DNA from: Nitrospirota bacterium
Lineage (GTDB): Bacteria; Nitrospirota; UBA9217
Length of the DNA: 64,000 bases
Assembly: GCA_963737155.1 (NCBI GenBank)
Contig: CAVTRN010000001.1
Location: 1,536,001 to 1,600,000, forward strand
Direction of reading: 5' to 3'
The notes beneath the pieces are model-generated. The model was not told the DNA's origin. It was given only the letters and a program-made list of their open reading frames with translations, and ran no database searches. Every line of letters begins with the position of its first letter. The first letter of the stretch is position 1. Below, piece after piece: positions 12,774 through 31,457 of this stretch. Both the position numbers and the translations under genes were made by a program.

Positions 12774-12788
12774 GATTTCCATTTGACT

Positions 12789-13458: not shown

Positions 13459-13528
13459 AGTATCGCAGATACTGCTAAGTTTGTCAAGCAATTAATTTAT
13501 ATCAAGCATTTACTTATTTTGCTTGATA
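13459..13528. promoter_or_regulatory. Candidate operator palindromes in the divergent promoter
   Basis: AGTATC-N3-GATACT (13459-13473); TATCAAGCA-N11-TGCTTGATA (13500-13528); extra TCAAGCA half site at 13484. Confidence 0.5.
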
Positions 13529-13591
13529 AATTGAGCATAGTAGGTTAAAATTTTCCACAAGAAGAAATTGAATGTCCAGAGAGGAGCCATT

Positions 13592-13969: not shown

Positions 13970-14883
13970 TAAAACGAGACGACTCTTATTTACCACCTGA
14001 CAGGCTCACCGCCGTCAAGAAAGAAGCCAATCGCGCATTAAGAAATGCGGATGCTTATGGTGTGTTTCCCACGCCTATAGAACAAATTTTTGAGATGGCA
14101 AAAGTCGACCTGGCTCCAGAAGACGCTTTCCATACTGGCCTTGTTCGTAGATTTAGAAATAAATTCGGCGATACTCTCAGACGTGCATTATCAAAAGTTA
14201 GTGGAATATTTGACGTCGCAGGACGCATAATCTACGTCGATCAGACCCTCCATGCGGTCAAACAAACCTTTCTCAAATTGCACGAAATCGCGCATTCCTT
14301 TATGCCATGGCAGCGCAACCTGTATTCAGCAATAGAAGATTGTAAAAAAACAATAGAATCAGAACAAGCTGATGCTTTTGATCGGGAGGCGAATGTCTTT
14401 GCTAGCGAAGTATTATTTCAAGGCAATCATTTTATGGAAGAAGCAGCAGACTGTACTTTTGGAATATTGACACCTGTTAATCTCAGCAAAAAATATGGCG
14501 CTTCGATTTATGCAGCAGTCCGCCGATATGTACGAACAAATCCCCGAGCCTGCGCCGTTCTTGTTATTAATAGTCCTATTTTAGCAGAAGTCGATGGATT
14601 CATAGCTACTCTTCGAAGGGTAGAAATGTCGGAAACTTTTTTACTACAATTTGGCAACATTGCGTTCGCGGAACAATTTACGCCTGATGATCAGATAGGC
14701 GCTATGATCCCGATAGAAAAACGAAGAATGACAAGACCACGTATTATTCTTCTTGAAGATATTAATGGAGCAACTCATGAATGTGTTGCAGAAGCATTCA
14801 CTCAGACATATCAGATTTTTATCTTAATTTGTCCCAAATTGAGTTTAACTCGTAAATCAATAGTCGTGCCGCCTTTCAAATAA
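13966..14883 (+). CDS. ImmA/IrrE-family metallopeptidase (CapP-like)
   Basis: FLKLHEIAH (HExxH), REANVFASEVLF; GTGA overlap with the HTH gene region. Confidence 0.85.
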   Translation: MIKRDDSYLPPDRLTAVKKEANRALRNADAYGVFPTPIEQIFEMAKVDLAPEDAFHTGLVRRFRNKFGDTLRRALSKVSGIFDVAGRIIYVDQTLHAVKQTFLKLHEIAHSFMPWQRNLYSAIEDCKKTIESEQADAFDREANVFASEVLFQGNHFMEEAADCTFGILTPVNLSKKYGASIYAAVRRYVRTNPRACAVLVINSPILAEVDGFIATLRRVEMSETFLLQFGNIAFAEQFTPDDQIGAMIPIEKRRMTRPRIILLEDINGATHECVAEAFTQTYQIFILICPKLSLTRKSIVVPPFK

Positions 14884-14913
14884 ATGTCATGTGAGGTCTC
14901 CTTTTTTTATGAC

Positions 14914-15366
14914 TTACGGTTTTTTCGCATCTTCGGCCCGTACCGAGTACGCAAGCATGCGTGCAAAACGGTCGCGATCTAATTCGGCGTTCCCGGTACT
15001 ATACGTGTCGTCTTTCTTGTGCTGAGCCTTGTATTTCTGCCAGAACTTCAATACCTGTTCGGTAATATCGATGGAGTCTGTATTTAACTTTCGCACCTTA
15101 TTGCGGAGAACGAGAGCGTTTATCTCCGACTCGATAGCAACGTATTGATCGACGAACTTGGCATATTGGCGATTCTGTCCATCTGTTTCCAGAAGATTTC
15201 CGTAAAAATGGTCAACCAACTTTGCACATTCAAACGTTGTGCGCTGGGTATCTGCATCATAGGGCGCAATAAGTTGCACACTACATCCAGTGATAAATGT
15301 GATGGACGTGAAAAACAACAAAAACAATAGCGGATATTGGCGAGAGCACTTTGCTTTAGTTTGCAT
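14914..15366 (-). CDS. Hypothetical lipoprotein
   Basis: Signal peptide ending ITGC; AGGAG RBS. Confidence 0.7.
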   Translation of the reverse strand: MQTKAKCSRQYPLLFLLFFTSITFITGCSVQLIAPYDADTQRTTFECAKLVDHFYGNLLETDGQNRQYAKFVDQYVAIESEINALVLRNKVRKLNTDSIDITEQVLKFWQKYKAQHKKDDTYSTGNAELDRDRFARMLAYSVRAEDAKKP

Positions 15367-15491
15367 GTAAGTATCTCCTTAATCAACGCTTAAACCTTCT
15401 GCAGATTGCAAATATCGTTAAAATGCCCGCGGAAAACATTTATCGTTTGGGGGGAATAGTCCTGTAGGCATTCTCGATCTGTGAAACGCAA

Positions 15492-16259
15492 TCAACCATC
15501 TATACCGGCATAATAATTGTAAAACTGCTTAGCTGTTCGTCCGCTTTTACAAGCTCTTAACAGCGAGAACATTCTAGCGGCTTCATGTAGCTTGCTTCTA
15601 TCCCCCCTGTAATTTGGGAAATAACTGTCGATGATTCTCAGGTAGCCTTCCATGTCTGCTTGATAGAACGATAACCAAAGCCCAAACCTATCTGACAACG
15701 ATATCTTTTCTTCAACAGAATCTGTATAATGCAATTCTCCATCAACAATACTTGTCTCTATGTTGTCTTTCATGTGTTCAGGTACTAGATGCCTACGATT
15801 AGAAGTTGCATATAGCAAAACATTGTTTGGTGGCTGCTCGATGGATCCTTCAAGCACGGTCTTCAGGGCAATATATGAGTTCTCATTTTCATCAAAGGAA
15901 AGATCATCGCAGTAAATAATAAATCTTTGCGGAAGTTCTCTTATGTCGTCAACTATGTAAGGTAAATTATACAAATCATTCTTCGATACTTCAATCAAAC
16001 GTAATCCATTTAATTTATATTCGTTCAGTATTGCCTTAATTAGTGATGATTTTCCTGTACCTCTCGCTCCCCACAATAATGCATTGTTGGCCGGCTTGCA
16101 GGAAAGAAATCGCTTTGTATTATTTACCAATTCTTCTTTCTGGTTTTCAATTCCAATCAAGGCAGCTAGAGTAATGGGGTCTATGGCCTTTACAGGACGA
16201 AGCTTACCTTGTTGTTGTCTCCATACAGCTGCATTTATTTGAGACCAGTCTATATCCAT
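15492..16259 (-). CDS. DUF815 family AAA+ ATPase (intact)
   Basis: ANNALLWGARGTGKSSL, IIYCDDLSF, YATSNRRHLVPE, SLSDRFGL. Confidence 0.9.
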   Translation of the reverse strand: MDIDWSQINAAVWRQQQGKLRPVKAIDPITLAALIGIENQKEELVNNTKRFLSCKPANNALLWGARGTGKSSLIKAILNEYKLNGLRLIEVSKNDLYNLPYIVDDIRELPQRFIIYCDDLSFDENENSYIALKTVLEGSIEQPPNNVLLYATSNRRHLVPEHMKDNIETSIVDGELHYTDSVEEKISLSDRFGLWLSFYQADMEGYLRIIDSYFPNYRGDRSKLHEAARMFSLLRACKSGRTAKQFYNYYAGIDG

Positions 16260-16519
16260 AAAAAAATTCCCTCCCACGAAGAGCAAATCATTGTTGATCC
16301 ATGGTCAGTAGCAAGCAATCTAGGATCTGTTTAGCATCGGATTAAAGTTTTGGACATTTGTCATTCATTAGCCCCTTTTCGGGAAAGCTTGATGATTATA
16401 ACGATCTGGCTCTTGCGCTTAATAAGGGTGTTTAAGGCCACCTTACTCTTCCGGAAGATAAAATCAACATGCCAAGAATAATTTCCTTAAAGAGGAAAGA
16501 GTAGTCAAATCGACTGCGC

Positions 16520-16918
16520 TCAACTCTTGCCTTTTCCTGTCTCTTGGCCTGCGCTCTCGATCAAAGAACCCGGTGCGTTGAGAAATGTCTGGTTGACTTG
16601 GGAAAATAGCTGTGTACTGGCCCCCTCGCTGCTGTCTCGGTCCAGTTCCCCTGCTGATTTATAGACAAGCTCCATAACTCTCGCGGCATCAGATGCCTTC
16701 ACACGAGTATCGGTAACAATACATCCGTCCTTGTCTTTCTCTCCAAGGAATCCGGTCATGATCTTCTCGGCGCATTTTGACGCGAGCCTGAGCTTACGAG
16801 GATGGGCTAGACTCTCCTTCCGCAGCTTCGGTAACACTCGTGACACAGATTTAGGGTGATAATCTAGGGCTTTTGCTATTGCGGAATGAGAAAAGCCGTT
16901 CTCTTCAAGTACCAACAT
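16520..16918 (-). CDS. HTH protein, possibly terminase-small-subunit-like
   Basis: GFSHSAIAKALDYHPKSVSRVL HTH; VKASDAARVMELV helix; reading frame stays open upstream without a clear start. Confidence 0.45.
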   Translation of the reverse strand: MLVLEENGFSHSAIAKALDYHPKSVSRVLPKLRKESLAHPRKLRLASKCAEKIMTGFLGEKDKDGCIVTDTRVKASDAARVMELVYKSAGELDRDSSEGASTQLFSQVNQTFLNAPGSLIESAGQETGKGKS

Positions 16919-17049
16919 AGCGGCCCGTTTTATTGCGCTTTCCGGCTTCCTTCCGGTGATTTTATGTGGTTTTTCTATAGGTTCTAAAGTATCGATATTT
17001 TCTCCGCGTATAAGCCAAATTTATCTTGCCCATACTGGTACAAGACAAC

Positions 17050-17970
17050 TTACGGCTTCTGTGCAATAGTTAGAGCCAAGGATGCCTCCCTCTGAAATCC
17101 TTTCGGTAAGCCGTTCATCTGAATGCCTGTGTAATCGCTGCTCAATAATTCGATAGCCCCATGAAATTCCTTCACCCTAAGTTTTTTGCGGAGTTCCCTA
17201 TTAGATTCAACGACCTTCTGATAGTAATCAACCAAAGTTCGACCCAAGTTGTTCGCGGTCACGAGATAAAGCATATGATCGCCCGTAGAGCCGAAATACG
17301 CGTCTATTTCCCAAATTCGTTCCCCGGCTGGTTGGAAGAGGCCAGGCTGCGGCCAGCAAAGGCCTCCGTGGAATATAAGTAAGTAGTTGTTTGTTCCGGG
17401 TTCGTTGATGCACTTGACACGAATAGTTTGCTTGCAATCTTTGCCCGTCTCGTAAATCTTTAGGCTGTCGCCATTCTTTGGACTGATGATAGTCGCCCCG
17501 AGGGTCTCCTGGGATCGGATAAAGGCGGCATTCTGGGAGCGAATCTTCATCGCAAGATCATGCGGGAAGAGAGCAACCTCGACGCCGCGATGCTGAAGTT
17601 TCCACAACCCCTTACCTGTCACGCCTTGATTGGGGTCCAGGATCCCCACGAAAACTTTCCTGATTTCGTTCTGCAGGATCAATTCGGTACAACACTCCAA
17701 TCCTCTCGTTCGGACCTCCGGTGTGCATGGTTCAAGTGTGGTGTATAGTGTCGCTTTCGGCAGCTGAGTCCTATCCTTGACGCCTTTAAGGGCAACGTGC
17801 TCTGCGTGGTCATCGTCGCCTTCTATCCCTGTTCCTCGACGACCGCGTCCAATCACTGTGTCGCCGATAGCAATAACGGCGCCGACTTTTGGGATGCTTT
17901 CCTTGCTCGGGCTGCATTTGTCTGCCCAGTCTATCGCCTCATTCATCAATTTGATGTCAACATTCTCCAT
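17050..17970 (-). CDS. Zn-dependent deaminase (RibD/CMP-deaminase-like N-domain) with uncharacterised beta-rich C-domain
   Basis: PKVGAVI, HAE, LYTTLEPC...CC, GILDPN; no reductase domain. Confidence 0.8.
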   Translation of the reverse strand: MENVDIKLMNEAIDWADKCSPSKESIPKVGAVIAIGDTVIGRGRRGTGIEGDDDHAEHVALKGVKDRTQLPKATLYTTLEPCTPEVRTRGLECCTELILQNEIRKVFVGILDPNQGVTGKGLWKLQHRGVEVALFPHDLAMKIRSQNAAFIRSQETLGATIISPKNGDSLKIYETGKDCKQTIRVKCINEPGTNNYLLIFHGGLCWPQPGLFQPAGERIWEIDAYFGSTGDHMLYLVTANNLGRTLVDYYQKVVESNRELRKKLRVKEFHGAIELLSSDYTGIQMNGLPKGFQREASLALTIAQKP

Positions 17971-18357
17971 GTTCTTCTCTCCCTGTCTACTCTAAATGAT
18001 TTTCAGCGCGCCCTGGCCAATGAAACAACCCGGCACTCTGGTCGCGAACAACTGGGTTACCATAAGTCCCCTCGTTCTACAGAAAGTACTCTTTGATTAA
18101 ACACTTTATCACAATGACATATTTCAATCAGTAAATTAGCATCAAGCTATTGGGTAGATTTTCTAAGATTCATCTATAAGCAGCGCAGCGGCGTTGACTA
18201 TAAATCAATGTAGAATGCGACTTGAAAATTGAACGCGAGCGCGGGTTACGCGCCGCCTTTGATGCGTCGCTGTGGACCCGCTGGTACGAATCAGTGCGTC
18301 GAATGCTACGCTAATATGTTTTTGTCAACAAATGAGATTTGTCCCATCAATATCCTT

Positions 18358-21276
18358 TTATTCTGCCTTATCCGAGGCACTTTTATTTTCCTTGATACCT
18401 TCCGGTTCAGGCTCATAAACATGAGTAGAGAAGCTAGTAAAATCAATTGGCTGTTCTCGCACCCACGGAATAATGTATGTTCCTACAATTTTATGCAATA
18501 CTCTATCTGTTACGCCTAGTTTTTTACAAAGGTGACCCCAGAGTACGATTTTGCGTGCCATACTAATGCTGGATAGCGACATTATCATAAGGTAAAAACT
18601 TAGTAGGAAGTACATAATTATTGGTAACTCAGAATGATTCTTTGTTCTAAGGTATAATTGTGTTTTCACCATCCATAACGTTATTAGGATAACCAATAGT
18701 GTTGGTATCATTCTAAATAAGAATCGTAACCAATTTCGGCCTGATGCTGACATCTTTCTTGGTAGACTATGCAAGAGGGTTTCGCAAAATACGATTGGGC
18801 GTAAGATAATTAATCGAGAAACACTTTCACTTATAATTGTTCTGAATAGACGATTTGCAATGGATATTTCTTTTGTTTTCTGATTAATTTCTTTATTATC
18901 CCTAATTCCGACAAGTAGTTCAGATAGAAAATCAATTGCTACAGGAAGCAAAAGGATGTCCTCGATACTCAAATATGTGGCCCTCAAGATTGCTTGAGCC
19001 TTTTCAGAGGTTGCATTTTGAATCCTATCTGCGATAACAGAAGCAACAAGATATTCCATGAATGATTTATGTCCAAATCGGAATGTACCAGGAGCAGCCG
19101 GGTCATCTGCTAAGAGGCCGCACGCCCGAACATCTGTTTTGACATGTTCGATACCAAATTCGTTATCTTGTAAACGGATGTGTAATGGTTTTGTGGTTTC
19201 CCCTGATGTTGCGGGTGAATCAGTCGAGACTGATAGTGGAATGGAATTTATTAAAGCGCTTATAGTTTCATTAAGCTGCGTTGCAGTAATCTGATTAGGA
19301 AGTCGTTTTGATGCCATGCAAGCTGCAATACCTGTCATAAAATACTCTCGTTCCAGTGTGGTAAGTGCCATAAACTCTGGTGAGCCAAACTCCTTCAAGC
19401 CTTGTCGTCGATAGCTGTGCCTTATAAATAAATCCATAACGAAAGCAGAAGTAAGTTCGTCAACTTTTTCAAAAAGACGTTCCTTTTCCCAAAGTACAGC
19501 CACTATATGCAATAGAGAAGGTCTTGATACAAGTTCTCTAAAACGAGAATTATTTTCGACTAGAGTATGAATTTGGTAAATTATTGTTGGCTTATAACTT
19601 CTTAAAGCCTCCTTAACTTGCTGAGAATTAAATGGCGCTAGCCGTAACGCTTCACAATATGGACTTTCCCCTACAGGCTTACTAATTCCAAGTGCTGCTA
19701 TCATTTCTTCTTCATCAAGGAAAAAGTTTGGTCGGCCTGTGATTAGTATTTTTGCATTTGGATAAGCAAATTGCCAAAGTGTTCTGAAGTGTTTGAGTCG
19801 CATCTCGAGGTCACCTACTAAAGCCATTTCATCGAATCCCTCAAAAACCAGAACAAGTCTTCCAGCAATAAGCAAACGTAATAGAGCTTGAGGGTTTATG
19901 CCATATTGTGCCGTCCAAGCACCTAGAAATTGGAGTGGGGTCAAATTTCGCGGACTAGTCCCTCTAAGTTCAATTAATATGGGAATACGATTGGACGAGT
20001 TTTGCCACTTTTTTATTAGGTGATAAGCCCACATAACAGTTGCCGTACTTTTCCCTTGTCCATACTCACCCAATAGCGCAATTTGCCGTTGACCGGTTGC
20101 ATCTAGCCAGGTATTTAGATATTCTTCTGCGTTGCGGTTATGCTTTTCGCCATTCTGAATAAAAAAAATAGAAGATGGAACATACACATCACAAAGGGTT
20201 AAGTCTGAGTCAGGTAAATGGTTAATTGTAACTCTTCGCCTAATATCGTTGAAGTAATCCTTGAAATCAATCAAACAATCAAGAAGACTATCTTCAGTTT
20301 CATAACGAATGAATGTGTTATTCCAATTAACAATCGGCTTATTGGTATGCGTTTTTGTTGCGACTATTATCTCGCCAACATTTTTATTATCATGTGAAGC
20401 TATTCGATCAACATACGATAGAAATTCCCTTAGCTTGCTTTCATTTACTTCTTCTAGAAGTGGATTTAAGAAAACCAAATCACCAGTATTAACGTTTGTT
20501 CCCACCCAACAGTTTGAACTATCATGCCAACCGTTATCAAGATCGAACGCATAAGAAGACGACGACAGGCGAACTAACTCCTTCGCTTGGTCTTTCCAAG
20601 CCAATGTATCTCTTACCGATTCTAATTGGGGAATGAACTGTTTTGGATTTATCTCTGTGTATACTTGTAAGGGAGATTCTCGCCTCAAAAGACGTTTGAG
20701 TTCATTCATCCCTTCCATAAAAAAATTTAGGAATTCAGAACGTTGTTCATGTCGATGCTGCTCAATGCTCTTAAGTCCATGCCAGTTCTTTTGTAGTTGG
20801 TGAAGTGTCCAAATAAGAATAATATAAAGTGTAATAATAAAAGCGTAATCAATCCATCGCGTATTTGATTGAAATACGGTCTTGTCAATAAACACACAGT
20901 AGAAAGCATTAGGAATCGACCACGGCATGAGGCCAGTTAGTAGCGATGCAACTAAAAATAGGCTCGCAAATATTGATGTGAAAAATAATAATAAAGAGAG
21001 TTCCTCGCGTAAATGTCGGCTCTGATAGATCCAGACCGACAGGCTACTTTTTATAAAGAGCAATGTGATAATTATCATTATGATACAATATGGGAGTGAA
21101 AAGTTATAATCTAATAAGTCTTTGTTAGATTGAGTGGTTTGTTGAAATATCCCACTCTTGTATTCAATTACTAGAAGGATAATTCCAACTAATATCGAGG
21201 TGGCAATGTTCACAAATATGCTTTTTAATAAGTTAGGAGTGGGATGATTTCCCTGTTCGTTCTTTGTTTTTGACAT
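18358..21276 (-). CDS. NACHT-domain NTPase with N- and C-terminal TM segments
   Basis: Walker A GEYGQGKST, Walker B LVFEGFDEM, KILITGRPNFF, RPSLL, FRFGHKSFMEYL. Confidence 0.85.
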   Translation of the reverse strand: MSKTKNEQGNHPTPNLLKSIFVNIATSILVGIILLVIEYKSGIFQQTTQSNKDLLDYNFSLPYCIIMIIITLLFIKSSLSVWIYQSRHLREELSLLLFFTSIFASLFLVASLLTGLMPWSIPNAFYCVFIDKTVFQSNTRWIDYAFIITLYIILIWTLHQLQKNWHGLKSIEQHRHEQRSEFLNFFMEGMNELKRLLRRESPLQVYTEINPKQFIPQLESVRDTLAWKDQAKELVRLSSSSYAFDLDNGWHDSSNCWVGTNVNTGDLVFLNPLLEEVNESKLREFLSYVDRIASHDNKNVGEIIVATKTHTNKPIVNWNNTFIRYETEDSLLDCLIDFKDYFNDIRRRVTINHLPDSDLTLCDVYVPSSIFFIQNGEKHNRNAEEYLNTWLDATGQRQIALLGEYGQGKSTATVMWAYHLIKKWQNSSNRIPILIELRGTSPRNLTPLQFLGAWTAQYGINPQALLRLLIAGRLVLVFEGFDEMALVGDLEMRLKHFRTLWQFAYPNAKILITGRPNFFLDEEEMIAALGISKPVGESPYCEALRLAPFNSQQVKEALRSYKPTIIYQIHTLVENNSRFRELVSRPSLLHIVAVLWEKERLFEKVDELTSAFVMDLFIRHSYRRQGLKEFGSPEFMALTTLEREYFMTGIAACMASKRLPNQITATQLNETISALINSIPLSVSTDSPATSGETTKPLHIRLQDNEFGIEHVKTDVRACGLLADDPAAPGTFRFGHKSFMEYLVASVIADRIQNATSEKAQAILRATYLSIEDILLLPVAIDFLSELLVGIRDNKEINQKTKEISIANRLFRTIISESVSRLIILRPIVFCETLLHSLPRKMSASGRNWLRFLFRMIPTLLVILITLWMVKTQLYLRTKNHSELPIIMYFLLSFYLMIMSLSSISMARKIVLWGHLCKKLGVTDRVLHKIVGTYIIPWVREQPIDFTSFSTHVYEPEPEGIKENKSASDKAE

Positions 21277-21431
21277 GCTCAGTATTCTCCTAATTTTAAC
21301 AAGTTAGTATAGGGACGGAAACCGCCCCGATAAGCACGAAATTTCGGTGTTAACGAGTTTAGCAATTAATGCGCCATATCGTTTTCATAATCCAGACAAC
21401 TATATGCCTGTCACCCTGCTTTGTCAACGAC

Positions 21432-21466
21432 TGCGCGGAGTAATGCGCGGAGTAATGCGTGAAGTA
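21432..21466 (+). repeat. Tandem 12-bp direct repeat
   Basis: TGCGCGGAGTAA x2 + TGCGTGAAGTA. Confidence 0.6.
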
Positions 21467-21897
21467 TTTTATTAGGTATTTCAACTACTACTAAATGGTG
21501 GGCATCGCTCAGTGGAAACTTGGAGAAGATTGAGGCATTGAAGAAAATAGCTGGAATCATGTTCCACCCGGTCAAATTCTCAAAAGGGGTCATGGGGGGC
21601 ATAGCTAGGATAGGAGTCTTCTACTCATCTCGGCGCGTCCCTATGTAGGGTTGCCCACTCTCCTACCATGCCTGAGACACGACCGCCTTCGCCTGTCCCC
21701 TCTGGTCTCCCTGACCAGAAAAAGGATGGCCCCAGGTTGTCCAAGGGCCATTATTAGACTGTAACTCTTTTTGTAACCGTCATAACGAAAATATACCAAC
21801 TTGCCCCCTCATCATCCAACACGGTAAAGACAAAAAAACCGCAATGAATCACTATCATTCATGCGTTCTCAGTCACTTACCTGTTTTGGATTTTACT

Positions 21898-21951
21898 GAC
21901 TCAAAATCATCCGGGGGGAACTCCATGTCGGTTCGATTCCGACCGCCGGCA
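21898..21951 (+). other. 3' half of tRNA-Leu(CAA): att-site duplicate, not a complete tRNA
   Basis: GACTCAAAATC anticodon arm, long variable arm, GTCGGTTCGATTCCGAC T-arm, GCCGGCA acceptor strand; no D-arm or 5' strand upstream. Confidence 0.8.
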
Positions 21952-22129
21952 CTATTCTTTTTCAAGTAGTTACGCAAGCTGTCCTTCCTTCTCACTCCCC
22001 TCTAAATTGGCTACTATAACCTCTTTATAACTGTTAGCACACCAGTTATGACTCTCGTCCTTTTGCATGCGCACCACGGCAACCTTTCCCATTCCACTGC
22101 GTAAGTCAGACTCGTTATAATAGTTAATT

Positions 22130-22867
22130 CCAAAGCTAAACCCCCGGCTTCGCCGGGGAGAATAGAAAAAGCTATGCTGTAGTATTTGAAAAAGAAAAGC
22201 TCCTTTCCTACAATAAGACCGCTGTTCCGATGGTCATCGTAAGAAAGGAGCAACCAGGTGAAGGAAAGTTTAGCACACACAGTCCATGATTGTAAATACC
22301 ATATTGTATTTGTGCCTAAGCTCAGGAGAAAAGTCATATACGGACGGCTTCGACAGGAAGTTGGCCCGATACTGCGTCGGTTGTGCGAATACAAAGGGGT
22401 GGGCATTTTAGAAGGGAAAGCCTGTATAGACCACATCAATTTGTGTCTGTCGATACCGCCCAAGTATGCAGTAGCGACCATTGTGGGGTATATAAAGGGA
22501 AAAAGCGCGATGATTGTGTTTGAACGGTACAGCAAACACAAGCGGAATTTCAAAGGTCATAGTTTTTGGGCACGCGGGTACTATGTCAGTACGGTGGGGC
22601 TGGATGAAGCGAAGATACGGAAATATATCAAGGATCAGGAAATCAACGAAGCAATTGTGGATAAGTATGATCGGGATGTCCATGACCCTTCTAGGGGTGC
22701 CCGTAGCAAGAGCAATTAGCAGCAATAAACCACGTGACGCGAATGGCTATCGGAACAGCCAAGTGCACCACGATGGACAGAAAAAGAAGATAACCCCTTA
22801 AGGGGTGCAAGTAACACTGCCCCTATGGGGCTTAAGCAAGCCACCGGCTACGCCGGTGGTCATGACT
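22130..22867 (+). mobile_element. IS200/IS605-family element (tnpA only)
   Basis: Subterminal hairpins CCCCGGC-TTC-GCCGGGG (22142-22158) and CCACCGGC-TAC-GCCGGTGG (22841-22859); exact ends approximate. Confidence 0.8.
22258..22719 (+). CDS. tnpA: IS200/IS605 Y1 transposase
   Basis: CKYHIVFVPK.RRK, SIPPKYAV, FWARGYYVSTVG, YIKDQE; HuH motif reads HIN. Confidence 0.92.
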   Translation: MKESLAHTVHDCKYHIVFVPKLRRKVIYGRLRQEVGPILRRLCEYKGVGILEGKACIDHINLCLSIPPKYAVATIVGYIKGKSAMIVFERYSKHKRNFKGHSFWARGYYVSTVGLDEAKIRKYIKDQEINEAIVDKYDRDVHDPSRGARSKSN

Positions 22868-23658
22868 AAAAATCTTTCATGTAGGTAGTAGGCAGAGTGG
22901 TATGGGAAATGTGCAACATGAAATTCGTACTTTGTGATATTTTTATTTAGCTATACCTTCTGTACTAATAATGCCTCCCGAATGGAGTGCAAATATGAAG
23001 TGATTTCGTGATAATTACAGAACTATTCTTCTCGTCGGCGGTGATATTGGCGTTCTCATGTGGGCGGCCATAGAAATAGTTCTTCACTTATTGTAATTAA
23101 CCCCTAAGAATACAAACTAGGTACTAATAACTATTATTGTTTTTTTGTGATATTTGCGGTATTGGCCTATACCCATATTTTTTCACTACAAAAACAGCTG
23201 CCAATGGGGACTATTTTTGGAAATACAGATTGCACGACGGAGCAGCTGATTGATCTGCAAGACCAGTTTGTCGCTTGGTCAGCTCAGTGCACAAAACGAA
23301 CCGGGGTATCGGGGAAGCTGTAGGAGAAGTCAAAAGATTTCAAGATGACACTCCGCCAGAAGTCGTTGCAGCAGTGCTCGTTAAGTTGACTTCGGATTTC
23401 TTCGCACGTGAGTGGAAATTGGGTAAGACGGTACATTAATTACCATCATAAATAATTTTCGGAAGATAGCGTATCGAGCGCCACAAATGCCCGTCGGGTT
23501 GACGACATGTTGAACCAGAGTTCTATTCGATAACTTTTCACTAGTTTTACCGTCCTTGCTGCGCTGATAAGTAAAAAAGCCTGCCAAATAAATATGGCAA
23601 GCTTTTCTTTAATGCAGGCACGAAATTGTGCCATATACTAAATTTTTCTATAGTCGCT

Positions 23659-23979
23659 TCAAGCAACTTTTTTACTTAAGTTTCTGTAATGATGTTTATG
23701 GTAATCTTTTCTACTCACAACATACGAGAATGAGGAAGAATCCTTATGTATGTAAACCTTTCCCATAAATTGATCATCCGTTAATAGCTCTACAATTGCA
23801 TTAATGTTAGATGTAGACTCTACGTTAATTTTGCATTTAGTAGTAAATTTATCAGAAAGCGCAACAGAAAAACGATCAATAGTCCCGATTAGATCTTTTC
23901 GAATTTTACGATAGTGGAACTGTCGCGCAACAAATAACCCAACAACGACAAAAAGAACAGCAACATTAAAAGTATTCAT
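23659..23979 (-). CDS. Hypothetical protein with N-terminal TM anchor
   Basis: VAVLFVVVGLFVA; GAGG RBS; third gene of an AT-rich operon. Confidence 0.6.
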   Translation of the reverse strand: MNTFNVAVLFVVVGLFVARQFHYRKIRKDLIGTIDRFSVALSDKFTTKCKINVESTSNINAIVELLTDDQFMGKVYIHKDSSSFSYVVSRKDYHKHHYRNLSKKVA

Positions 23980-23992
23980 ATTTGTTGTAACC

Positions 23993-24160
23993 TCATCTAT
24001 TTCTGACTATAGCATCAGTTAGCTTGTCGAGTGTATTCTTAATTATTTTTACCTCTGGGGTGCCATTCCAGTTTTTAATTGTATCTAAGATAAAATAAAA
24101 AACAAGTAGAATAGATATTAGATTGGAAACATTCCCTATGTAATTTTTAAAAAAATTCAT
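23993..24160 (-). CDS. Small single-TM protein (55 aa, below the ORF-track cutoff)
   Basis: MNFFKNYIGNVSNLISILLVFYFILDTIKNWNGTPEVKIIKNTLDKLTDAIVRNR*; TAATG coupling to the upstream gene. Confidence 0.6.
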   Translation of the reverse strand: MNFFKNYIGNVSNLISILLVFYFILDTIKNWNGTPEVKIIKNTLDKLTDAIVRNR

Positions 24161-24819
24161 TATTCAATATTCCAGCTTTGTTTTTTTCTCTTGAACCAAT
24201 CTAACTCATCTTTATATTTTTTAAAAGCTTCCAAAAGAATATCAAGACCACTTTCTGTAACTTCAAAAACAAATTGATTATCATCCTTTGTCGAGAGTTT
24301 AATCTCACATATGGGGTATAAATCTAACACTTTATTTTTATCAGTGGGATCTACAATAGATCTAAGACTAGTTACACCAACTATATTGCTAAGTTTCGGA
24401 ACTACCAAACCAACATGTTCTTTTTGAAGAGATTTAATTGCTTTTAGATCATCATAGATGAAATATTTCTCAAGAGATTGAATAACAGAATTGTCTAGTT
24501 CTTTTCCTTTAAAGAATTTAGAAGTTAACGTTTTTATGTCATTAATCGTATCACTAGTTTGCATCCTCTTAAGAAGCTGACTTCTTCTAATAAACTTCAA
24601 TAATTCAACAGCGGCTTTTACTTTTTCTGGATTCTCAAATTTATCAAAAAGTGAATTTACTAATTCGTCAGACTTTGCGCGATTCTGTAAAGATTCTGCT
24701 TCTGCAAGAGTAGTGGCTATATCATTCAACTGCTCAGCTGGCATTGAAGTTAATGTGCTGAAATCTACAAAGAAGTCATTACTTAAATCAACTAAATCAT
24801 CGATTAATTTTATTTTCAT
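24160..24819 (-). CDS. COMMD-like protein (helical N-domain + COMM-like C-domain)
   Basis: PKLSNIVGVTSLR...PICEIKLST...FVFEVTESGLDILLEAFKKYKDEL matches the COMM beta-beta-beta-alpha pattern; 219 aa; CDS is secure, family is inferred. Confidence 0.55.
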   Translation of the reverse strand: MKIKLIDDLVDLSNDFFVDFSTLTSMPAEQLNDIATTLAEAESLQNRAKSDELVNSLFDKFENPEKVKAAVELLKFIRRSQLLKRMQTSDTINDIKTLTSKFFKGKELDNSVIQSLEKYFIYDDLKAIKSLQKEHVGLVVPKLSNIVGVTSLRSIVDPTDKNKVLDLYPICEIKLSTKDDNQFVFEVTESGLDILLEAFKKYKDELDWFKRKKQSWNIE

Positions 24820-24997
24820 ATTTACACTAATAGTTTTTGATAAGTTGATTAATTGTTTCAGCAGTATCCCTATTAAATAAGATGTAACAAATAGACTCGT
24901 ATAAACTACCTACTCAGTGAAGAATTTATGTATTATTAAATATTCTTTTTAAAAAGTCAATAATCTTTATAATAATAATGAACCGTCGGATTCCGAA

Positions 24998-26520
24998 GAC
25001 GAGGTCAAGCTTTTAGTTGAAATTATCTGAGTGGCCCGTTCCCTTCGGCTAAAGTATTTTTATCGGTTCAACGGTGTAAATCATCGCTGTTTATAAAATC
25101 GGATTCGTAGGATCGCCATATGTGAGTTTTCTGAGGCCGAGCCATACCTAACCATCCCCCTTTACGCAGCCTCTTTGACTGTTAGGTCATTTAATTCTTC
25201 CGCTTCGATCCGTTTCATCACGTCCGCGATGAAGGCGTGGCCCTTGATCTTTCTGAATCCTTGTTCAGCATATAAGAGGACAGAAGCGAGCCAGCGCTGC
25301 ATCATCTTGCTGTCGCGGTAGCGCTTTATATTGCCTTCTGCTTTTCTCACCGTGGAAAACATGCTCTCGATAGGATTGGTAGAATGCAACGTCTTCCTCA
25401 AGAGAGCGGGGACCTTCAATCGATGAAGGGTGAGAATGTCTTCTATCGCTTCCATGAGCGAATCAGCCGCCGACTCATTAATGCCCCGAAGCCATTTCTC
25501 CATGTCCAGAAGCATCTGACGAGCGTCCGCGTAATTATTCTGCTCCAGGGCTGTCCGGAACCTCCAGTGTGCGCCTTTCCGGTATTTCTTCGGCAAATGA
25601 TGCTGTATATTCCGGTCCTTGTGGATCGTGCACCGCTGATGGATGAGTTTCTTACCGAAGCGATCCCGGAGTGCCTTGATTACGCCCTTGCCGCCATCGG
25701 TAACCCAGATGATTCGTCGTGAAAGTATCAGACCTCGCCGCTCTATATCAGAAAACAGCTCTTCACACAGTTCATGGTTCTCCGTCGCCCCCTGCCAGAA
25801 CCCCAATGTCTGCTTCTTTCCGGCAATATCAAGCCCCAGCGCCACGATGAATGCCTCTCCGCCGCGGTGAACAGTGTCTAAAAAGACCGCAAAGGGAACG
25901 AATGACGTGAGTGACCGTTCCTTAAACTCCTGAAGCTGTTTTGCTGTTGCCGCGACGATATGGCTCGATACCGTGCTGGCGGACACTCCAAATGCTCGTG
26001 CCGTATCTACAACTGTCTCCGCATACTTCCGGCATGATATGCCCCGAAGCACCTTTCCAAGCAATTCTTCTGCGAAGACTTCCGGTTTTTTCATCTTCTG
26101 ATAGCTCTGCAGTACAATCTCACCCGCCGGACCTCGAAGCCGAGGGTGGGTCACCGGGATCTTCTGATCTCCGATATAGACGGAACCGCCCTGGCTAGCC
26201 CACTTCCGCAGATCGGGACTGTTAGGCTGGTAGTCGGGGCCGGCAATCTCCTCCCGCTCGATGTACATGATCGTCTCTGCCATCATTCTGCCCATTTCCT
26301 TCATGCATTCATCAAAACCCTGTTTCCCTTTTGCGAAGACACAATACATCTGTTCGATGATCTCCCGCCTTCCGTATGCCTCTTCAATTCCTCGTATTGC
26401 CTTTTTTCTCTTCCTTGTGGTATCCTTCATTGAGTGGCTCCTTTCTTTTTTCTCTCTCTACCGTGGATTATGCCACGGGGGAGCCACTCTTTTCAATTTC
26501 AACTAAAAACAGTATAACCT
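24998..26520 (-). mobile_element. IS256-family element
   Basis: Imperfect IRs sharing TTTTAGTTGAAATT...GAGTGGC; flanking direct repeat GGATTCCGAA at 24988-24997 and 26521-26530. Confidence 0.85.
25162..26430 (-). CDS. IS256-family transposase
   Basis: VFLDTVH, VTDGGKG, HQRCTIHK.RN, STNPIES. Confidence 0.92.
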   Translation of the reverse strand: MKDTTRKRKKAIRGIEEAYGRREIIEQMYCVFAKGKQGFDECMKEMGRMMAETIMYIEREEIAGPDYQPNSPDLRKWASQGGSVYIGDQKIPVTHPRLRGPAGEIVLQSYQKMKKPEVFAEELLGKVLRGISCRKYAETVVDTARAFGVSASTVSSHIVAATAKQLQEFKERSLTSFVPFAVFLDTVHRGGEAFIVALGLDIAGKKQTLGFWQGATENHELCEELFSDIERRGLILSRRIIWVTDGGKGVIKALRDRFGKKLIHQRCTIHKDRNIQHHLPKKYRKGAHWRFRTALEQNNYADARQMLLDMEKWLRGINESAADSLMEAIEDILTLHRLKVPALLRKTLHSTNPIESMFSTVRKAEGNIKRYRDSKMMQRWLASVLLYAEQGFRKIKGHAFIADVMKRIEAEELNDLTVKEAA

Positions 26521-26846
26521 GGATTCCGAATCCATACATAGTTATAGTAATGGACACATGAAGTTTATCTACCAGATTAACTTCGATAATATCACTTCTT
26601 TTGTAAACATTATACCATGAAGATAGCTCATTCATCAACAGTGATTATGCGTGCGAATTGACTCACAATAAATGGAAAAGTCAGAAAAACCGATCGATTT
26701 ATTTATTATTATTGGGTATTCGTAACGTAGTGTGGATTCCCTCTGGTTTAATGCCCTGTGCACATCGTGGCAAAATCGTAAAATAGTGTTGAAATTCACA
26801 AATTGACAATGTATACTCAAATCGTAATCTAGTGTGGGAGGCACTT

Positions 26847-27152
26847 ATGTTAAAAACTAATATTCAAATCCCGATGATAAAAATCGAAGAGTTCTGCCTC
26901 AAATGGAAAATCAAGGAATTTTCTTTGTTCGGTTCGGTACTCACGGAAGATTTTCGTCCCGACAGCGACGTGGATGTGCTGGTGACGTTCGAGCGGGGTG
27001 GCAGTATTACGTTTGACAATCGCGTGGACATGCTGGACGAGCTGAAGGCAATATTTGGAAGAGAAGTTGACCTTGTCGAGAAAAAGGCCATCAGCAATCC
27101 TTTCCGCAGGCACTCGATCCTCACGACAAAGGAGGTCCTGTATGCGGCCTAA
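26847..27152 (+). CDS. MNT nucleotidyltransferase antitoxin (MntA-like)
   Basis: LFGSVLTEDFRPDSDVDVLV; FGREVDLV; GGAGG RBS. Confidence 0.9.
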   Translation: MLKTNIQIPMIKIEEFCLKWKIKEFSLFGSVLTEDFRPDSDVDVLVTFERGGSITFDNRVDMLDELKAIFGREVDLVEKKAISNPFRRHSILTTKEVLYAA

Positions 27153-27504
27153 TGAACGGGATGCCGCATATCTCCTGGACATGCTTCAGGCAGCAGAGAA
27201 GGTCCGCCGTTTTGTTAACGGGATAAAACAGGAGGAGTTTGCTGAAAACGGGGTGCTACGTGATGCCATCGAACGCAATATCGAGATCATCGGAGAGGCC
27301 GCTCGCAAAGTGACGGAGGCGTTTAAAAAGCATCATCCTGAAATTCCTTGGCGCAAGATAATTGCCCAGCGCAACGTGCTAGTTCACGAGTACGATAAGA
27401 TTGGTGTGGATGAAATGTGGAGTGTGGTGACGTTTCATGTACCAAACCTGATAGAGAATCTTGCGCCGTTGATACCTCCCACGCCGCCGGAGGTCGAATC
27501 CTAA
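27142..27504 (+). CDS. HEPN/DUF86 RNase toxin (HepT-like)
   Basis: IEIIGEAA, IPWRKI..QRNVLVHEY (RX4H); GGAGG RBS. Confidence 0.9.
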   Translation: MRPNERDAAYLLDMLQAAEKVRRFVNGIKQEEFAENGVLRDAIERNIEIIGEAARKVTEAFKKHHPEIPWRKIIAQRNVLVHEYDKIGVDEMWSVVTFHVPNLIENLAPLIPPTPPEVES

Positions 27505-28814
27505 TGCCTATCAATATTCTCAATCTAAACGCCTATGAGATCATAAATTTCAAAGAAACAGAGCATGATTATCATATATATGCGAGGACCAAGGTACCGT
27601 CAACCATATGCCCTCACTGCGGATCAAATAATGTCGTAGGGCATGGGTCCGATGACATCACTGTAAAAGATATGACGATACATGGCAAGCGAGTAGGCGT
27701 GTATATCGGCGTACGTAGGTATAAATGCCGGGGCTGCGGTAAAACCTTTACTGAAGCACTGCCTCATATAAATAGCAAAAGACTAATGACAGATCGACTT
27801 GTTCAATATGTCGGCGGCCAGGCACTTAGCCGTACTTTCACAAGCATAGCAGATGAGATTGGAGTCGCAGAAGGTACTATACGGAACATTTTTCGTGACT
27901 ATGTGAACGAACTTGAAAAAACAGTCCGATTCGAGATACCACAGTGGATGGGTATCGATGAGATTCATATTATTAAGAAACCCAGAGCTGTCATCAGCAA
28001 TATCGAGAACAACACAATCGTAAATATCTTACCTGATCGGAATAAAAAGACTGTCATCAAATATCTAAACGGTCTTGATGGTAAAGATCGTGTTCGATAT
28101 GTCGCAATGGATATGTGGAAGCCCTATCGAGATGCTGTCAATACAGTATTCCCAGACGCTACCATAGTCATAGACAAGTTTCATGTTGTCAGAATGGCAA
28201 ACGAGGCGGTTGAAAAAGTGCGTAAATCAATTCGGCAATCTCTCACGTCAGCCCAACGTCGAACACTCATGCACGATCGATTCGTCTTGTTGAAGAGACA
28301 AAAAGACTTGTCTGCAAAAGAAATACTTATACTAGCGACATGGTTCGCCAATTATCAGGATATTAAAGAGGTTTACGAGGTTAAAGAGCAATTCTTCAAT
28401 ATATGGGATGCAAAAGACAAAAACGAAGCGCTTGGCTTATATAACGGATGGCAGCAGAGCATACCTCAAAATCTTCTCGAAGCCTACCATCCATTAATTA
28501 CTGCAACAGAAAACTGGCAGGAGGAAATTTTTGCGTACTTTGATCATAAAATCACGAACGCTTATACCGAGTCTCTCAACAATTTAATAAGGGTCATGAA
28601 TCGATTGGGCCGTGGTTATTCCTTTGACGCCCTTAGAGCAAAAATTCTCTTCACAGAATCTATGCACAAGATTAAAAGATCTGCGTTTAAAAAATGGCCA
28701 GCAGATAACTTAATGTGTTTCCGGACGGAATCCACATTGGACAATCAGCCGGAAATTAATTACGGGGTGGATATATCCACACTAACAGAACTGATTGAGT
28801 CCGGAGCCTTTTGA
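27504..28814 (+). CDS. ISL3-family transposase
   Basis: CPHC...C..C zinc finger, GIDE, AMDMWKPY, DKFHVV, TNAYTESLN; TAATG-coupled start. Confidence 0.93.
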   Translation: MPINILNLNAYEIINFKETEHDYHIYARTKVPSTICPHCGSNNVVGHGSDDITVKDMTIHGKRVGVYIGVRRYKCRGCGKTFTEALPHINSKRLMTDRLVQYVGGQALSRTFTSIADEIGVAEGTIRNIFRDYVNELEKTVRFEIPQWMGIDEIHIIKKPRAVISNIENNTIVNILPDRNKKTVIKYLNGLDGKDRVRYVAMDMWKPYRDAVNTVFPDATIVIDKFHVVRMANEAVEKVRKSIRQSLTSAQRRTLMHDRFVLLKRQKDLSAKEILILATWFANYQDIKEVYEVKEQFFNIWDAKDKNEALGLYNGWQQSIPQNLLEAYHPLITATENWQEEIFAYFDHKITNAYTESLNNLIRVMNRLGRGYSFDALRAKILFTESMHKIKRSAFKKWPADNLMCFRTESTLDNQPEINYGVDISTLTELIESGAF

Positions 28815-28847
28815 CCTCCCACCCACACCAAATTACGAATACCCTTA

Positions 28848-30572
28848 TTATTTTACACTCCCCGCTACCCACTTAAGTAAATCCCTAGACCATCTAAAAT
28901 AATATTCTGGCCCCTTCTTCGACGGATGGCGCTTTGATTTCAGTTTAACGTTTTTTTCACTGAATTCCTTAATCATTTTCTTTAAGTGAATACAGTTTAC
29001 ATATTTTTGCATTAAATCTTTAGCATGTTGCACTAAAATATTAATGTCATCACTCGATACCAATACATAAGTACCTGGACCATTGGGCAAGTTCCTATGG
29101 TCGACTTCTACAAGACAGACATTTCTCCCTTTGTAATTAAACGTTGCACATCTATAAAGCCGCATATCCCAATTGCAGTTTTTATAGCTTTCCCTCTGCG
29201 TTAACCTCTTTGTTTGTTTTTTCCCACGCCGTTCGGGAACATCCCTTTCTGGAAACATTTCCCAGCTCTGAACACCTTCAGCATCACTAAGATAATTCAT
29301 TAACTCGTTAAAATTCTCTAAACAGAAATATGCCTTTTGCTCATCACTATTTTCGGTTTTCCCCCTGCTCCTCTTCTCCACATTGGCTTTCCGCGCAAGC
29401 GTTTCATTCTCGGCGTTCGGGTCTTCAATGACGCTCATGGGAACATCACCTAATACTTCTTCCGCGGTACGGGCATCACCCTCAGCAGCCTTTTCATTAT
29501 CCACCTCGGGGATGATAACATGAGCAATTTTTATTTTTTTTAGGTTAGAGTTTCGTTCTTCTTTAAGGGAACCAATGATAACGGGTTGCAACTGTGAGGA
29601 AGGCGGTTTGTTCGTGACGAGGTCAATTGTCTTATACGTCCGCGTAGGACGAAGGACTTCAGTTGCTTTGGGAGCCTTTTTCCTCGCACTTCGTTGTATT
29701 TCTAAGTTATCGAAACTGAAGGAGCTGTCTTCCTTCAATATCTCGAAAACAATTATCTTATTCTTTTGTCTCGTCGTATCATCGAATTCTAACCCCCTCA
29801 CTTCCATGTTAATAACTTGCTGAACAGGAAAGTCAAATTTAAGGGGAACAAATTCATTATTTTCTCCTGAAGATATCGCTTCTGAGTGGCGTTGGAGCAT
29901 ACCAGCATATACGGCATTCCACCTCTTCAACGAAAATTTGTTAGTGGCAAATCGAACAATATAAGGAGCATCATATTCGTTGGCGTTCGATTTCAAGTGA
30001 ATAGTTGCTTTATGAGTTTCTAAATCGACTTTAGCATACTCATATAAGCCCTCAAGTCTCCCGAAGAAAAGCTGTCGCCGCATGGCGGATGAGGTGAAGT
30101 AATACCTCGCACCGAGGACTGCACAGGGGAATATGAGCATGCTTTTCTCATCTTCAAAAATGACACAGGGTTGTCTCTTGCAATATTTTGAATAATCAAC
30201 GTGCTTTTCTCCCCGACTGAAGGAATGACTAAGATTATACTCGTCGTCTGTCAGCACATCAGATACCGAGCAGATCCGGTTTTTGTCTGTTGATGTAAAA
30301 GTAACCGGGAAAACTTCTCCAAGGGGTTTAATATCATCTACAAAATTTGTATCTTGATAATGGAGGCCTATAGCGAAATAATCATGTAAAAATTCCGGAA
30401 AGATATCCTCCGTTAAATACATATTGCTATTAATGTCTTTAAAAAGGACCTTGTAAAAGTTCTTACCTGCGACCGTTGAAATATCCATGATCCAAAGGAG
30501 TCTAAAGACTCGGTCTGGATGTTTTGTACTCATCTTAGGGAGCTTTGTAGATTTGATTGATCTCTCGATCAT
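28848..30572 (-). CDS. TnsE-like Tn7 target-selection protein (putative)
   Basis: 574 aa; LIFPCAVLGARYYFTSS in the N-domain; C-domain VCLVEVD...RHP...RW; lies next to a TGT end. Confidence 0.55.
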   Translation of the reverse strand: MIERSIKSTKLPKMSTKHPDRVFRLLWIMDISTVAGKNFYKVLFKDINSNMYLTEDIFPEFLHDYFAIGLHYQDTNFVDDIKPLGEVFPVTFTSTDKNRICSVSDVLTDDEYNLSHSFSRGEKHVDYSKYCKRQPCVIFEDEKSMLIFPCAVLGARYYFTSSAMRRQLFFGRLEGLYEYAKVDLETHKATIHLKSNANEYDAPYIVRFATNKFSLKRWNAVYAGMLQRHSEAISSGENNEFVPLKFDFPVQQVINMEVRGLEFDDTTRQKNKIIVFEILKEDSSFSFDNLEIQRSARKKAPKATEVLRPTRTYKTIDLVTNKPPSSQLQPVIIGSLKEERNSNLKKIKIAHVIIPEVDNEKAAEGDARTAEEVLGDVPMSVIEDPNAENETLARKANVEKRSRGKTENSDEQKAYFCLENFNELMNYLSDAEGVQSWEMFPERDVPERRGKKQTKRLTQRESYKNCNWDMRLYRCATFNYKGRNVCLVEVDHRNLPNGPGTYVLVSSDDINILVQHAKDLMQKYVNCIHLKKMIKEFSEKNVKLKSKRHPSKKGPEYYFRWSRDLLKWVAGSVK

Positions 30573-30729
30573 GCCGTATAGAAGAGCAAAGGATCTCCTA
30601 ATGGATGAAACAATACTTTATGTATTGCGCGGGACACCTTTGACTGGGCTAGATTAGAGAAAAATGGCGATAAGAGAGCGAGAATGCTTATTTTGGGGGG
30701 ATTAAGCGGACTTGTTTCACGGGTACCAC

Positions 30730-30800
30730 TATTTGTTGTGTCTTTTATTGAGCCAGTTGCAATATATTTTGTGTAGTTGCAATAACTAATAGCTATGACA
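30730..30800 (-). mobile_element. Tn7-like transposon end
   Basis: Minus strand TGTCATAGCTATTAGT-TATTGCAACT-N10-TATTGCAACT (20-bp period; plus-strand AGTTGCAATA at 30755 and 30775); coincides with the DUF815 break and the GC shift. Confidence 0.7.
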
Positions 30801-31294
30801 CCGCCGTCCATGATCGTTTTCATTTCCTTGTAATCGACCTGTCCCTCTTCGAAGGACAGATCGTCAATGAAGAGAATGAACCGGTAAGGAGTGCTCCGTT
30901 CAAGAAGATCATACATCTCCTGAATCGTGAGAATATCGTGCTTGTAGACCTGGATCATCCGGAGTGATGAGTTGTAAAAAACCGTAAGCAGGGACTTTAT
31001 AAGCGACGATTTGCCTGTACCGCGCTCACCCCAGAGCATAACGTTGTTTGCCTTGTTGCCGTCGATGAAATTCTTCGTATTGTGGATGACTGCCTTTTTG
31101 ATCGAATCGATGCCGATCAGGTCGCCTGTATCGATCTGGACCGGCCGCCTGACCGGGTTCATGGATTTCCGCTTTCCGTCCCAGAGAAAGGCCTTATAGC
31201 CGTCAAAATACGGTGTTTCCGGTCCGCTGTCCACGTAACGATCAAGCAGTTTGTCAAGTTTGGTTAGAATTTGCCCGATGTCGGCTTTGTCCAT
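30801..31294 (-). pseudogene. DUF815 AAA+ ATPase, 3' truncated by insertion
   Basis: NNVMLWGERGTGKSSL, LFIDDLSF, KTIMDGG, then homology stops before YATSNRRHL. Confidence 0.85.
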
Positions 31295-31457
31295 GATCTG
31301 CACTATACTCCTGTGTGTCCACGGGCGACTTTGTTGCACTGTAAATCCAAAGCACCGTTCACCCACGGTTTAATGTTTTAAAAAAGCTCCGGATACTAAG
31401 CCTCGATCAAAAAAAGAGGGATAACCGTTTTTAGCCTTCTTTAAGATACTTTTGTTC

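Follow-up and report, generated by a model that had tools for sequence, protein, structure and literature searches.

What broke a chromosomal DUF815 gene (PF05673) in a bacterium of the Nitrospirota, and why does an intact, divergent DUF815 gene lie close to the broken one? The locus is found on contig CAVTRN010000001.1 of the GenBank assembly GCA_963737155.1 (genome G000; GTDB lineage Bacteria; Nitrospirota; UBA9217), and the window referred to below is the whole stretch of 64,000 nt that was analysed, positions 1,536,001 to 1,600,000 of the forward strand (G000:C1:1536001-1600000). A first-pass annotation of the window had proposed that a Tn7-like element interrupts the native gene and carries the second copy as compensating cargo. 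We found that the native gene is split by a 97-kb insertion, whose limits and Tn7-family nature are established. That DUF815 serves as a dedicated attachment site and that the cargo copy compensates for its loss are plausible, and a Tn7-family insertion in DUF815 with homing and replacement, both of which we infer, is probably the best explanation overall.

The coding sequence of the native 5' half, ...ATCATGGACGGCGG, meets TGTCATAGCTATTAGTTATTGCAACT... directly at window position 30800 (the same junction can be given as ...AAAACGATCATGGACGGCGG followed immediately by TGTCATAGCTATTAGTTATTGCAACTACACAAAATATATTGCAACT). The gene thus ends at KTIMDGG exactly at a TGT end, as had been read before from the 30801/30800 junction; the DDLSF codons of the native gene stop 50 nt short of the element, near the earlier figure of about 45 bp but not equal to it. 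The first-pass annotation had also predicted that the target-site duplication (TSD) would be CCGCC and that the 3' half of the gene, with YATSNRRHL, would be found leftward on the contig. Both predictions held: CCGCC is present at C1:1469653-57 and at 1566801-05 as a 5-bp TSD flanking both element ends, and the 3' half, which reads YATSNRKHL, lies beyond the other end. Since this half is 97 kb away and CCGCC stands on both sides, the element spans G000:C1:1469658-1566800 (97,143 bp), its leftmost 66.3 kb lying beyond the window. On the plus strand its termini are TGTCAC... and ...ATGACA, i.e., TGT...ACA. On the minus strand the junctions read ...GACGGCGG/TGTCAT...(element)...GTGACA/GGCGGTCTGGAA, and the far end reads ...TTTGTGACA/GGCGG/TCTGGAACAAATCCCGGCAAACGTACTGTTCTATGCAACATCGAATCGGAAACATCTG. 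The end next to tnsA is the one that faces the 3' half of the split gene, and the YATSNRKHL codons of this half (invariant sensor-1 motif) are 32-58 nt from the TSD by manual count.

Genome G000 has exactly three DUF815 matches, namely the cargo gene and the two native halves. The native halves are 73-76% (5' half) and 80-84% (3' half) identical to the single DUF815 of five congeners, whereas the cargo DUF815 shows 41-44% identity to the native halves and to the congeners. The G+C content is 38.7% in the cargo gene, 49.0% and 55.7% in the native halves and 49.4% in the genome. By these values the split gene is the host's own ortholog and the cargo copy a foreign one of another subfamily. The description of a full-length, AT-richer and divergent homolog about 15 kb inside the island was accurate: the gene lies 14.5 kb from the element end and retains GARGTGKSS (Walker A), DDLSF (Walker B) and YATSNRRHL (sensor 1; alignment A4). 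At the insertion site it reads GAAGGATCC, the host gene GACGGCGGT, and in the sensor-1 stretch the two differ at about 12/39 bases (manual count). Its nearest relatives are ten metagenome protein clusters with 81-89% identity, followed at 70-78% by proteins with the source names Methylobacter, Methylovulum and Nitrospirota metagenome-assembled genome (MAG). In G373, a genome of the same phylum, the sole DUF815 is a cargo-type gene (71% identical); therefore, this subfamily can stand alone. A plasmid search gave no close cargo-type DUF815 (best 48%) and no close TniQ (best 29%). One hundred DUF815 matches on Acinetobacter plasmids were set aside as not related to Tn7; they are probably the DUF815 gene beside oxa23, an arrangement described for a prophage.

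The site before insertion can be read from relatives. The flanks, joined with one copy of the TSD, give the uninterrupted sequence of 5/5 congeners, ...ATCATGGACGG(C/A)GG(G/T/C)CT(G/T)GA..., and the gene order radical-SAM, DUF815, Usp is present in 5/5 congeners, the same genes flanking the two halves here. In the soil metagenome run X2, a 796-nt contig that is about 96% identical (9 differences in 222 aligned nt) passes from the 5' half (window 30800) straight into ...TTTGTTCCAG, the 3' half; its sequence ...GAACAGTACGTTTGCCGGAATTTGTTCCAG has one difference from the 3'-half flank of G000. Judged by this sequence, the contig is the empty site of a close relative. In the congener G012, the DUF815 gene is split over contigs C429 and C328 (L085/L086), whose ends share an overlap of 16 nt at a place 17 nt upstream of the insertion. 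We rejected this split as insertion evidence, the overlapping ends denoting an assembly break, and the assembly may have branched at the site through strain variation.

The transposition genes were located inside the far end of the element, outside the window, on the leftward side where tnsABC and tniQ were to be sought (Table 1). All four are read in one direction. TnsA and TnsB are both present, TnsC/TniB and TniQ are encoded in one operon, and the TGT...ACA ends and the 5-bp TSD are likewise features of Tn7-like elements, in agreement with the first proposal. The tnsB product is 35-90% identical to TnsB of 47 related loci. For TniQ, the predicted model is poor (predicted local distance difference test score, pLDDT, of 64) and the best fold matches, which are TnsD and TniQ chains, are weak. 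Downstream of tniQ, there are open reading frames (ORFs) of 136 and 96 aa without a family match and then an HNH protein, and no TnsF-sized gene is present after tniQ, as judged by ORF size, position and Pfam only.

Table 1. Features of the element and its surroundings. Positions are those of the window unless preceded by C1 (contig positions); IS, insertion sequence; HTH, helix-turn-helix.
Feature	Position	Strand	Evidence and remarks
Native DUF815, 5' half	30801..31294	-	PF05673, E 1.4e-45, profile 3-138/249; ends ...KTIMDGG
TSD copy in 5' half	30801-30805		CCGCC on +; last 5 nt of the half
Native DUF815, 3' half	C1:1469322-1469666	-	profile 131-247; YATSNRKHL; 97 kb leftward
Cargo DUF815	15492..16286	-	PF05673, E 9.6e-100, 333 bits (cut-off 23.8), profile 2-247; full length
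Left transposon end	30560..30800	-	terminus 5'-TGTCATAGC..., two TTGCAACT repeats
TATTGCAACT repeat	30755-30764 and 30775-30784		exact twice at left end
TnsE-like gene	28848..30572	-	574 aa; reads inward, strand opposite to tns operon
tnsA	just inside right (far) end		224 aa; PF08722 1.6e-7 (N/C domains, with PF08721 2e-6), NF033179 2.2e-18
tnsB	right end		652 aa; Mu-transpos_C 1.7e-8; weak IS481-type DDE matches
tnsC (TniB type)	right end		302 aa; PF05621 4.5e-68
tniQ	right end		365 aa, short; PF06527 7.2e-19; adjacent to tnsC, same strand
PD-T4-3	6748-7491		cargo; Pfam/PADLOC
dCTP-deaminase-like gene	9097-9993		cargo; Pfam/PADLOC
DUF6527, E1(ThiF)-JAB fusion, prokaryotic E2, multiubiquitin operon	10653-13193		cargo; Pfam/PADLOC
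HTH and CapP-like M78 peptidase pair	13568-14883		cargo; Pfam/PADLOC
Small HTH protein	16520-16918	-	Pfam; upstream of cargo DUF815
Cytidine-deaminase-like protein	17050-17970	-	Pfam; upstream of cargo DUF815
NACHT NTPase, membrane N-terminus	18358-21276	-	Pfam; upstream of cargo DUF815
IS200-like Y1 transposase	22258..22719	+	PF01797 2.1e-33
IS256-like (Mutator family) transposase	25162..26430	-	PF00872 4.9e-35
Second IS256-like copy	C1:1506453-1507721		PF00872 4.9e-35, same score
ISL3-family IS	26714..28844	+	22-nt inverted repeats (I16); DDE_Tnp_ISL3 9.4e-65

At the left end, the 574-aa protein has no sequence match in Pfam, NCBIfam or PDB. The top 7 Foldseek matches of its AlphaFold2 model (8 homologs, pLDDT 74.9) are the TnsE C-terminal domain (5d17, 5d16 and 9d5l; prob 1.00, TMt 0.56-0.66), and the product is thus predicted to fold like TnsE. 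In 5/5 relatives' genomes searched, one homolog of this protein is encoded on the opposite strand, 10-52 kb past tniQ, and further ones occur in L021, L020 and L046; by this homology, the TnsE-like gene is a conserved left-end gene of the transposon family. One contig of the wetland run X7 is 97% identical to part of it. The left end itself is closely similar to that of the comM-inserted relative L091, TGTCATTTCTTAAATATATTGCAACTCACTCAAATATATTGCAA, which abuts comM with the TSD GCGGC. As to the TATTGCAACT repeats reported by the first-pass annotation, there are exactly two perfect copies at the left end. With one mismatch allowed there are 7 matches in the window, and 12/100 shuffles reach 7, so that the number is not above chance. 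The right end is AT-rich and has only weak repeats, plus two AAGTTGCA/AAGTTGAC motifs near tnsA. Since shuffles reach the same count, the repeat alone proves little, and the case is carried by the other evidence.

Both DUF815 copies lie within one element. The suggestion that they might belong to two did not hold, and that of a tRNA att fragment between them was not confirmed, ARAGORN giving 0 tRNAs in the window and Rfam 0 matches at E<=1 in window positions 13000-31400. The genes tnsA, tnsB, tnsC and tniQ and the TnsE-like gene are each present in one copy in the genome. A pattern search revealed no inner left-type end within the element and two inner right-type matches, both in coding DNA, of a pattern that occurs 41 times genome-wide. 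No inner ...ACA-CCGCC-TGT... junction and no remnants of a second tnsB or tnsC were detected.

Relatives of the element were searched for with a 14-sequence TniQ alignment, since a 27-sequence one was too diverse and a single TniQ query found none among genome contigs. Members of the TniQ family are few (27 proteins at E<=1e-5 in a set of 5.8 billion proteins); the searches for loci yielded 17 in genomes and 51 in metagenomes, 68 together, and no relative was found in viral contigs. G401 is the best GTDB relative for both TniQ (48%) and the TnsE-like protein (40%), which speaks for one element rather than several. When the right flanks of 23 loci were scanned by Pfam, 10/23 turned out to be the 3' part of comM, with the Mg_chelatase profile starting at 84-95; L063 is flanked by the 5' part of comM, L013 by a methyltransferase gene, L024, L025, L044 and L065 by other families, and 7 gave no match. 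By these flanks, the clade chiefly targets comM and has switched to other targets several times. For comM, one attachment site is used repeatedly and in a fixed orientation (10 relatives); for DUF815 there is only the one insertion. In the comM relatives L017/L091, the GVLFLDE codons are about 39 nt from the TSD (manual count), and the geometry is common to them and to the present element: beyond the tnsA-side end lies the 3' part of an AAA+ gene, with a conserved motif tens of bp off. No sequence shared by the comM and DUF815 sites and no preferred TSD were found, TSDs varying among relatives, and the identity of the N- versus the C-terminal part of TniQ did not separate comM from non-comM targeters. 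In the comM-inserting clade (L011-L060, e.g., L015, L017, L021, L039), TniQ is short (about 320-420 aa) and the left end bears a TnsE-like gene, and a TnsF-sized ORF after tniQ is absent in most of 13 relatives checked. In L028 (2638-6381), the closest relative with DNA (TnsB 90%, TnsC 88%), tniQ is broken by about 2.5 kb of inserted DNA.

Metagenome proteins bear on whether the cargo copy moves with such elements. The cargo-type DUF815 P0031 (86%), the TniQ P0004 (66%) and the TnsE-like P0152 (40%) are each recorded from a single Joint Genome Institute (JGI) contig of 48,016 nt. For P0029, another cargo-type DUF815 (87%), the source contig measures 16,353 nt, and for the TniQ P0002 (78%) 16,356 nt. 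P0152 and P0004 differ from the G401 proteins (46% and 45%). A related element thus probably carries the same cargo-type DUF815.

Like prototype Tn7, the element has TGT...ACA ends, a 5-bp TSD and two selectors, a TniQ-domain protein and a TnsE-like one, and its right end (tnsA side) faces conserved coding sequence tens of bp off, which is the TnsD/attTn7 geometry. TnsD binds attTn7 at roughly +23 to +58 and has more than 500 aa, as opposed to the short TniQ here. Insertion of Tn7 occurs downstream of glmS, which stays intact, while the present insertion destroys its target. The element belongs to a small clade, mostly inserted in comM, that is related to Tn6022. Tn6022, an AbaR-type element, is described (PMC10293859) as having a short TniQ (369 aa), a TnsF of 498 aa whose gene follows tniQ, and a tnsE gene on the other strand. 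Here, TnsA, TnsB and TnsC are likewise accompanied by a short TniQ (365 aa), a tnsE-like gene, known by its predicted fold, lies on the strand opposite to the tns operon, and, as described there for Tn6022, an AAA+ ATPase gene is inactivated by an insertion beside a conserved ATPase motif (PMC10293859). Unlike Tn6022, the element has no TnsF-sized gene after tniQ (a distinction drawn by ORF size, position and Pfam and not by comparison with the TnsF sequence), its target is DUF815, entered between Walker B and sensor 1, instead of comM at Walker B, and a homolog of the target rides as cargo.

The closest precedent for the latter is a Heimdallarchaeial Tn7-like element that, according to the preprint (bioRxiv 10.1101/2025.07.27.667033), interrupts the gene of a DNA methylase and brings along a methylase of 75% identity; its authors propose replacement or addiction and draw parallels to Tn5053 and telomeric transposons. 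The two have in common an insertion inside the target gene and an intact homolog of that gene as cargo. The Heimdallarchaeial element is archaeal and 13.9 kb long, and transposition in E. coli has confirmed its att site, whereas the present element is bacterial and 97 kb long, with a copy of 41-44% identity and a probable homing step. In the literature we found nothing that links DUF815 to Tn7, including searches by COG2607/PF05673, in line with the view of the first-pass annotation that this site may be undescribed, and no functional study of DUF815. The terms DUF815, COG2607 and PF05673 are absent from the text supplements of the Tn7 surveys PMC8649781 and PMC10293859, whose further supplements may list more sites.

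By analogy with these systems, the insertion was probably made by the TniQ homing pathway, because the tnsA-side end faces the 3' half, the sensor-1 codons lie 32-58 nt off, and the geometry is that of TnsD/attTn7 and of the comM insertions. The cargo DUF815 may take over the function of the destroyed gene, which would make insertion less costly or render the host dependent on the element; we put this forward as tentative. Both proposals lean on the geometry, on an improbable coincidence and on the contig evidence for linkage. More speculatively, a sub-lineage of the comM type could have retargeted TniQ homing to DUF815 and could keep an insertion-proof DUF815 of the other subfamily as near-core cargo, swapping the host gene at each homing. 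TniQ would then recognise conserved DUF815 coding sequence and direct insertion at GGCGG, the insertion would split and destroy the host DUF815, and the intact cargo DUF815 of the foreign subfamily would substitute for it. This would amount to gene replacement or addiction in a bacterium, a strategy put forward up to now for a single archaeal element.

A number of observations weigh against homing and replacement, and most of them would fit a one-off insertion, made via the TnsE-like pathway or off-target, with the cargo DUF815 a coincidental passenger among about 90 genes. Since a TnsE-like selector is present, non-homing insertion is possible. A survey for DUF815 genes broken at the same codon, which the first-pass annotation had called for, gave no second case: DUF815 occurs in 106/401 phylum genomes (a sample that includes all 64 genomes of the family), and this insertion was found in 0/105 of the other DUF815-bearing ones, nor was DUF815 found within about 10 kb at any of the 68 loci with TniQ relatives (tblastn). 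Relatives use comM or other sites, and of the closest GTDB relatives elsewhere, L013 is in a methyltransferase gene and L011 has a flank without a family match, the ORF chosen there having proved a spurious frame. The element of G402 shows no paralog of the methyltransferase gene that it disrupts, so that disrupting and replacing is not a trait of the whole clade. Another contig of the wetland run X7 is about 90% identical to the left end over 201 nt (window 30598-30798) and then continues into unrelated AT-rich sequence; it diverges two bases before the terminus, with no ACA where this element ends. DUF815 looks dispensable in many relatives, 29/63 family genomes being without it, five of which are rated 100% complete (G019, G020, G041, G042 and G119). 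In G213 (L084, G213:C6, 6633-8582), a genome of the family, a TnpB-like (IS605-type) remnant cuts the gene eight codons upstream of the site; the 3' half has been lost, and the genome has no further DUF815. G004 and G175 have partial DUF815 matches, that of G004 beginning at a contig end. Coincidences are also to be expected when many windows are scanned, a procedure that selects for them. That a carrier of the same single-copy family should land at random in a gene of about 0.8 kb, out of a genome of 4.8 Mb, is, however, very unlikely (by estimate, of the order of 1e-4). DUF815 is single-copy in each of the 106 genomes except G000, so a second copy by chance is unlikely as well. Orientation and motif distance match the comM insertions of the clade, and a related element seems to carry the cargo-type DUF815 along, a linkage for which the shared contig is deduced solely from the equal sizes of 48,016 nt. 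We therefore regard a one-off insertion as unlikely, though as an alternative to be reckoned with.

If homing to DUF815 is accepted, the cargo copy could still be of no help to the host, serving the element in some other way, for instance as an ATPase of defence or regulation, or having persisted by chance as an insertion-immune allele. Such a role would suit its identity of only 41-44% to the native gene, its neighbours, which are defence-type cargo (NACHT, deaminases, CapP-like pair), and the non-essential character of DUF815 in the family. We consider a non-compensating copy rather improbable, as no PADLOC defence model matches it and as G373 and, to judge by source names, Methylobacter/Methylovulum MAGs have their sole DUF815 from its subfamily, which so looks like an ordinary housekeeping form. 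It is far less credible that the 97 kb are a composite of stacked or nested Tn7-like elements from which one set of tns genes and the inner ends later disappeared, so that the tns genes and the cargo DUF815 would stem from different elements. Repeated homing at one site would indeed leave the same outer TSD, and the two ends, with clear repeats only at the left one, are alike at only 15/26 terminal bases (manual count), which also counts against the preferred reading of one homing insertion. The values of 40% for P0152 and 66% for P0004 on the 48,016-nt contig hint at mosaicism, and the size is well over the medians of 14-29 kb given for Tn7-like elements in PMC8649781. The same paper, on the other hand, records elements of up to 140 kb, and five or more IS copies account for part of the length; the genome has a single tns set and a single tnsE-like gene, the search for inner left-type ends found none, and the left end, like the gene located there, has the form usual in the clade.

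The cargo of about 85 kb consists of defence genes, RHS genes, regulators and IS elements. The ubiquitin-type operon beside the dCTP-deaminase-like gene and PD-T4-3 forms a dense defence stretch, and PADLOC had no matches in the cargo genes at 16520..21276. Other cargo comprises an HNH protein, Mrr, a RelA/SpoT-TPR protein, a type IIG/I methylase and a two-component system. After two genes for large RHS proteins (1483 and 1322 aa) come orphan RHS-tip ORFs and a copy of ISL3 (C1:1509113-1528972, outside the window). The IS elements are two ISL3, two IS256, one IS4-like and one IS200. The ISL3 element in the window is a secondary insertion in the cargo and carries as passengers an MNT/HepT toxin-antitoxin pair (NTP_transf_2, HepT-like; Pfam), which lies upstream of, and overlaps, the ISL3 transposase gene. 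The second IS256-like copy splits a TonB-dependent receptor gene of the cargo (C1:1504756-1508165, outside the window).

Tn7-like elements are studied for their choice of safe conserved landing sites and as programmable-insertion tools. Should the insertion be a one-off, a well-delimited 97-kb defence island of an ordinary kind remains. If DUF815 is a homing site, it would add a new protein-guided target, and a short TniQ that switches between the AAA+ genes comM and DUF815 without a TnsF would provide a natural pair for mapping TniQ specificity. If the cargo copy travels with the element, it would be the first instance of "destroy and replace" in bacteria, a mode suggested to date for a single archaeal element. 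It would also give a handle on DUF815 itself, since its two subfamilies may be interchangeable.

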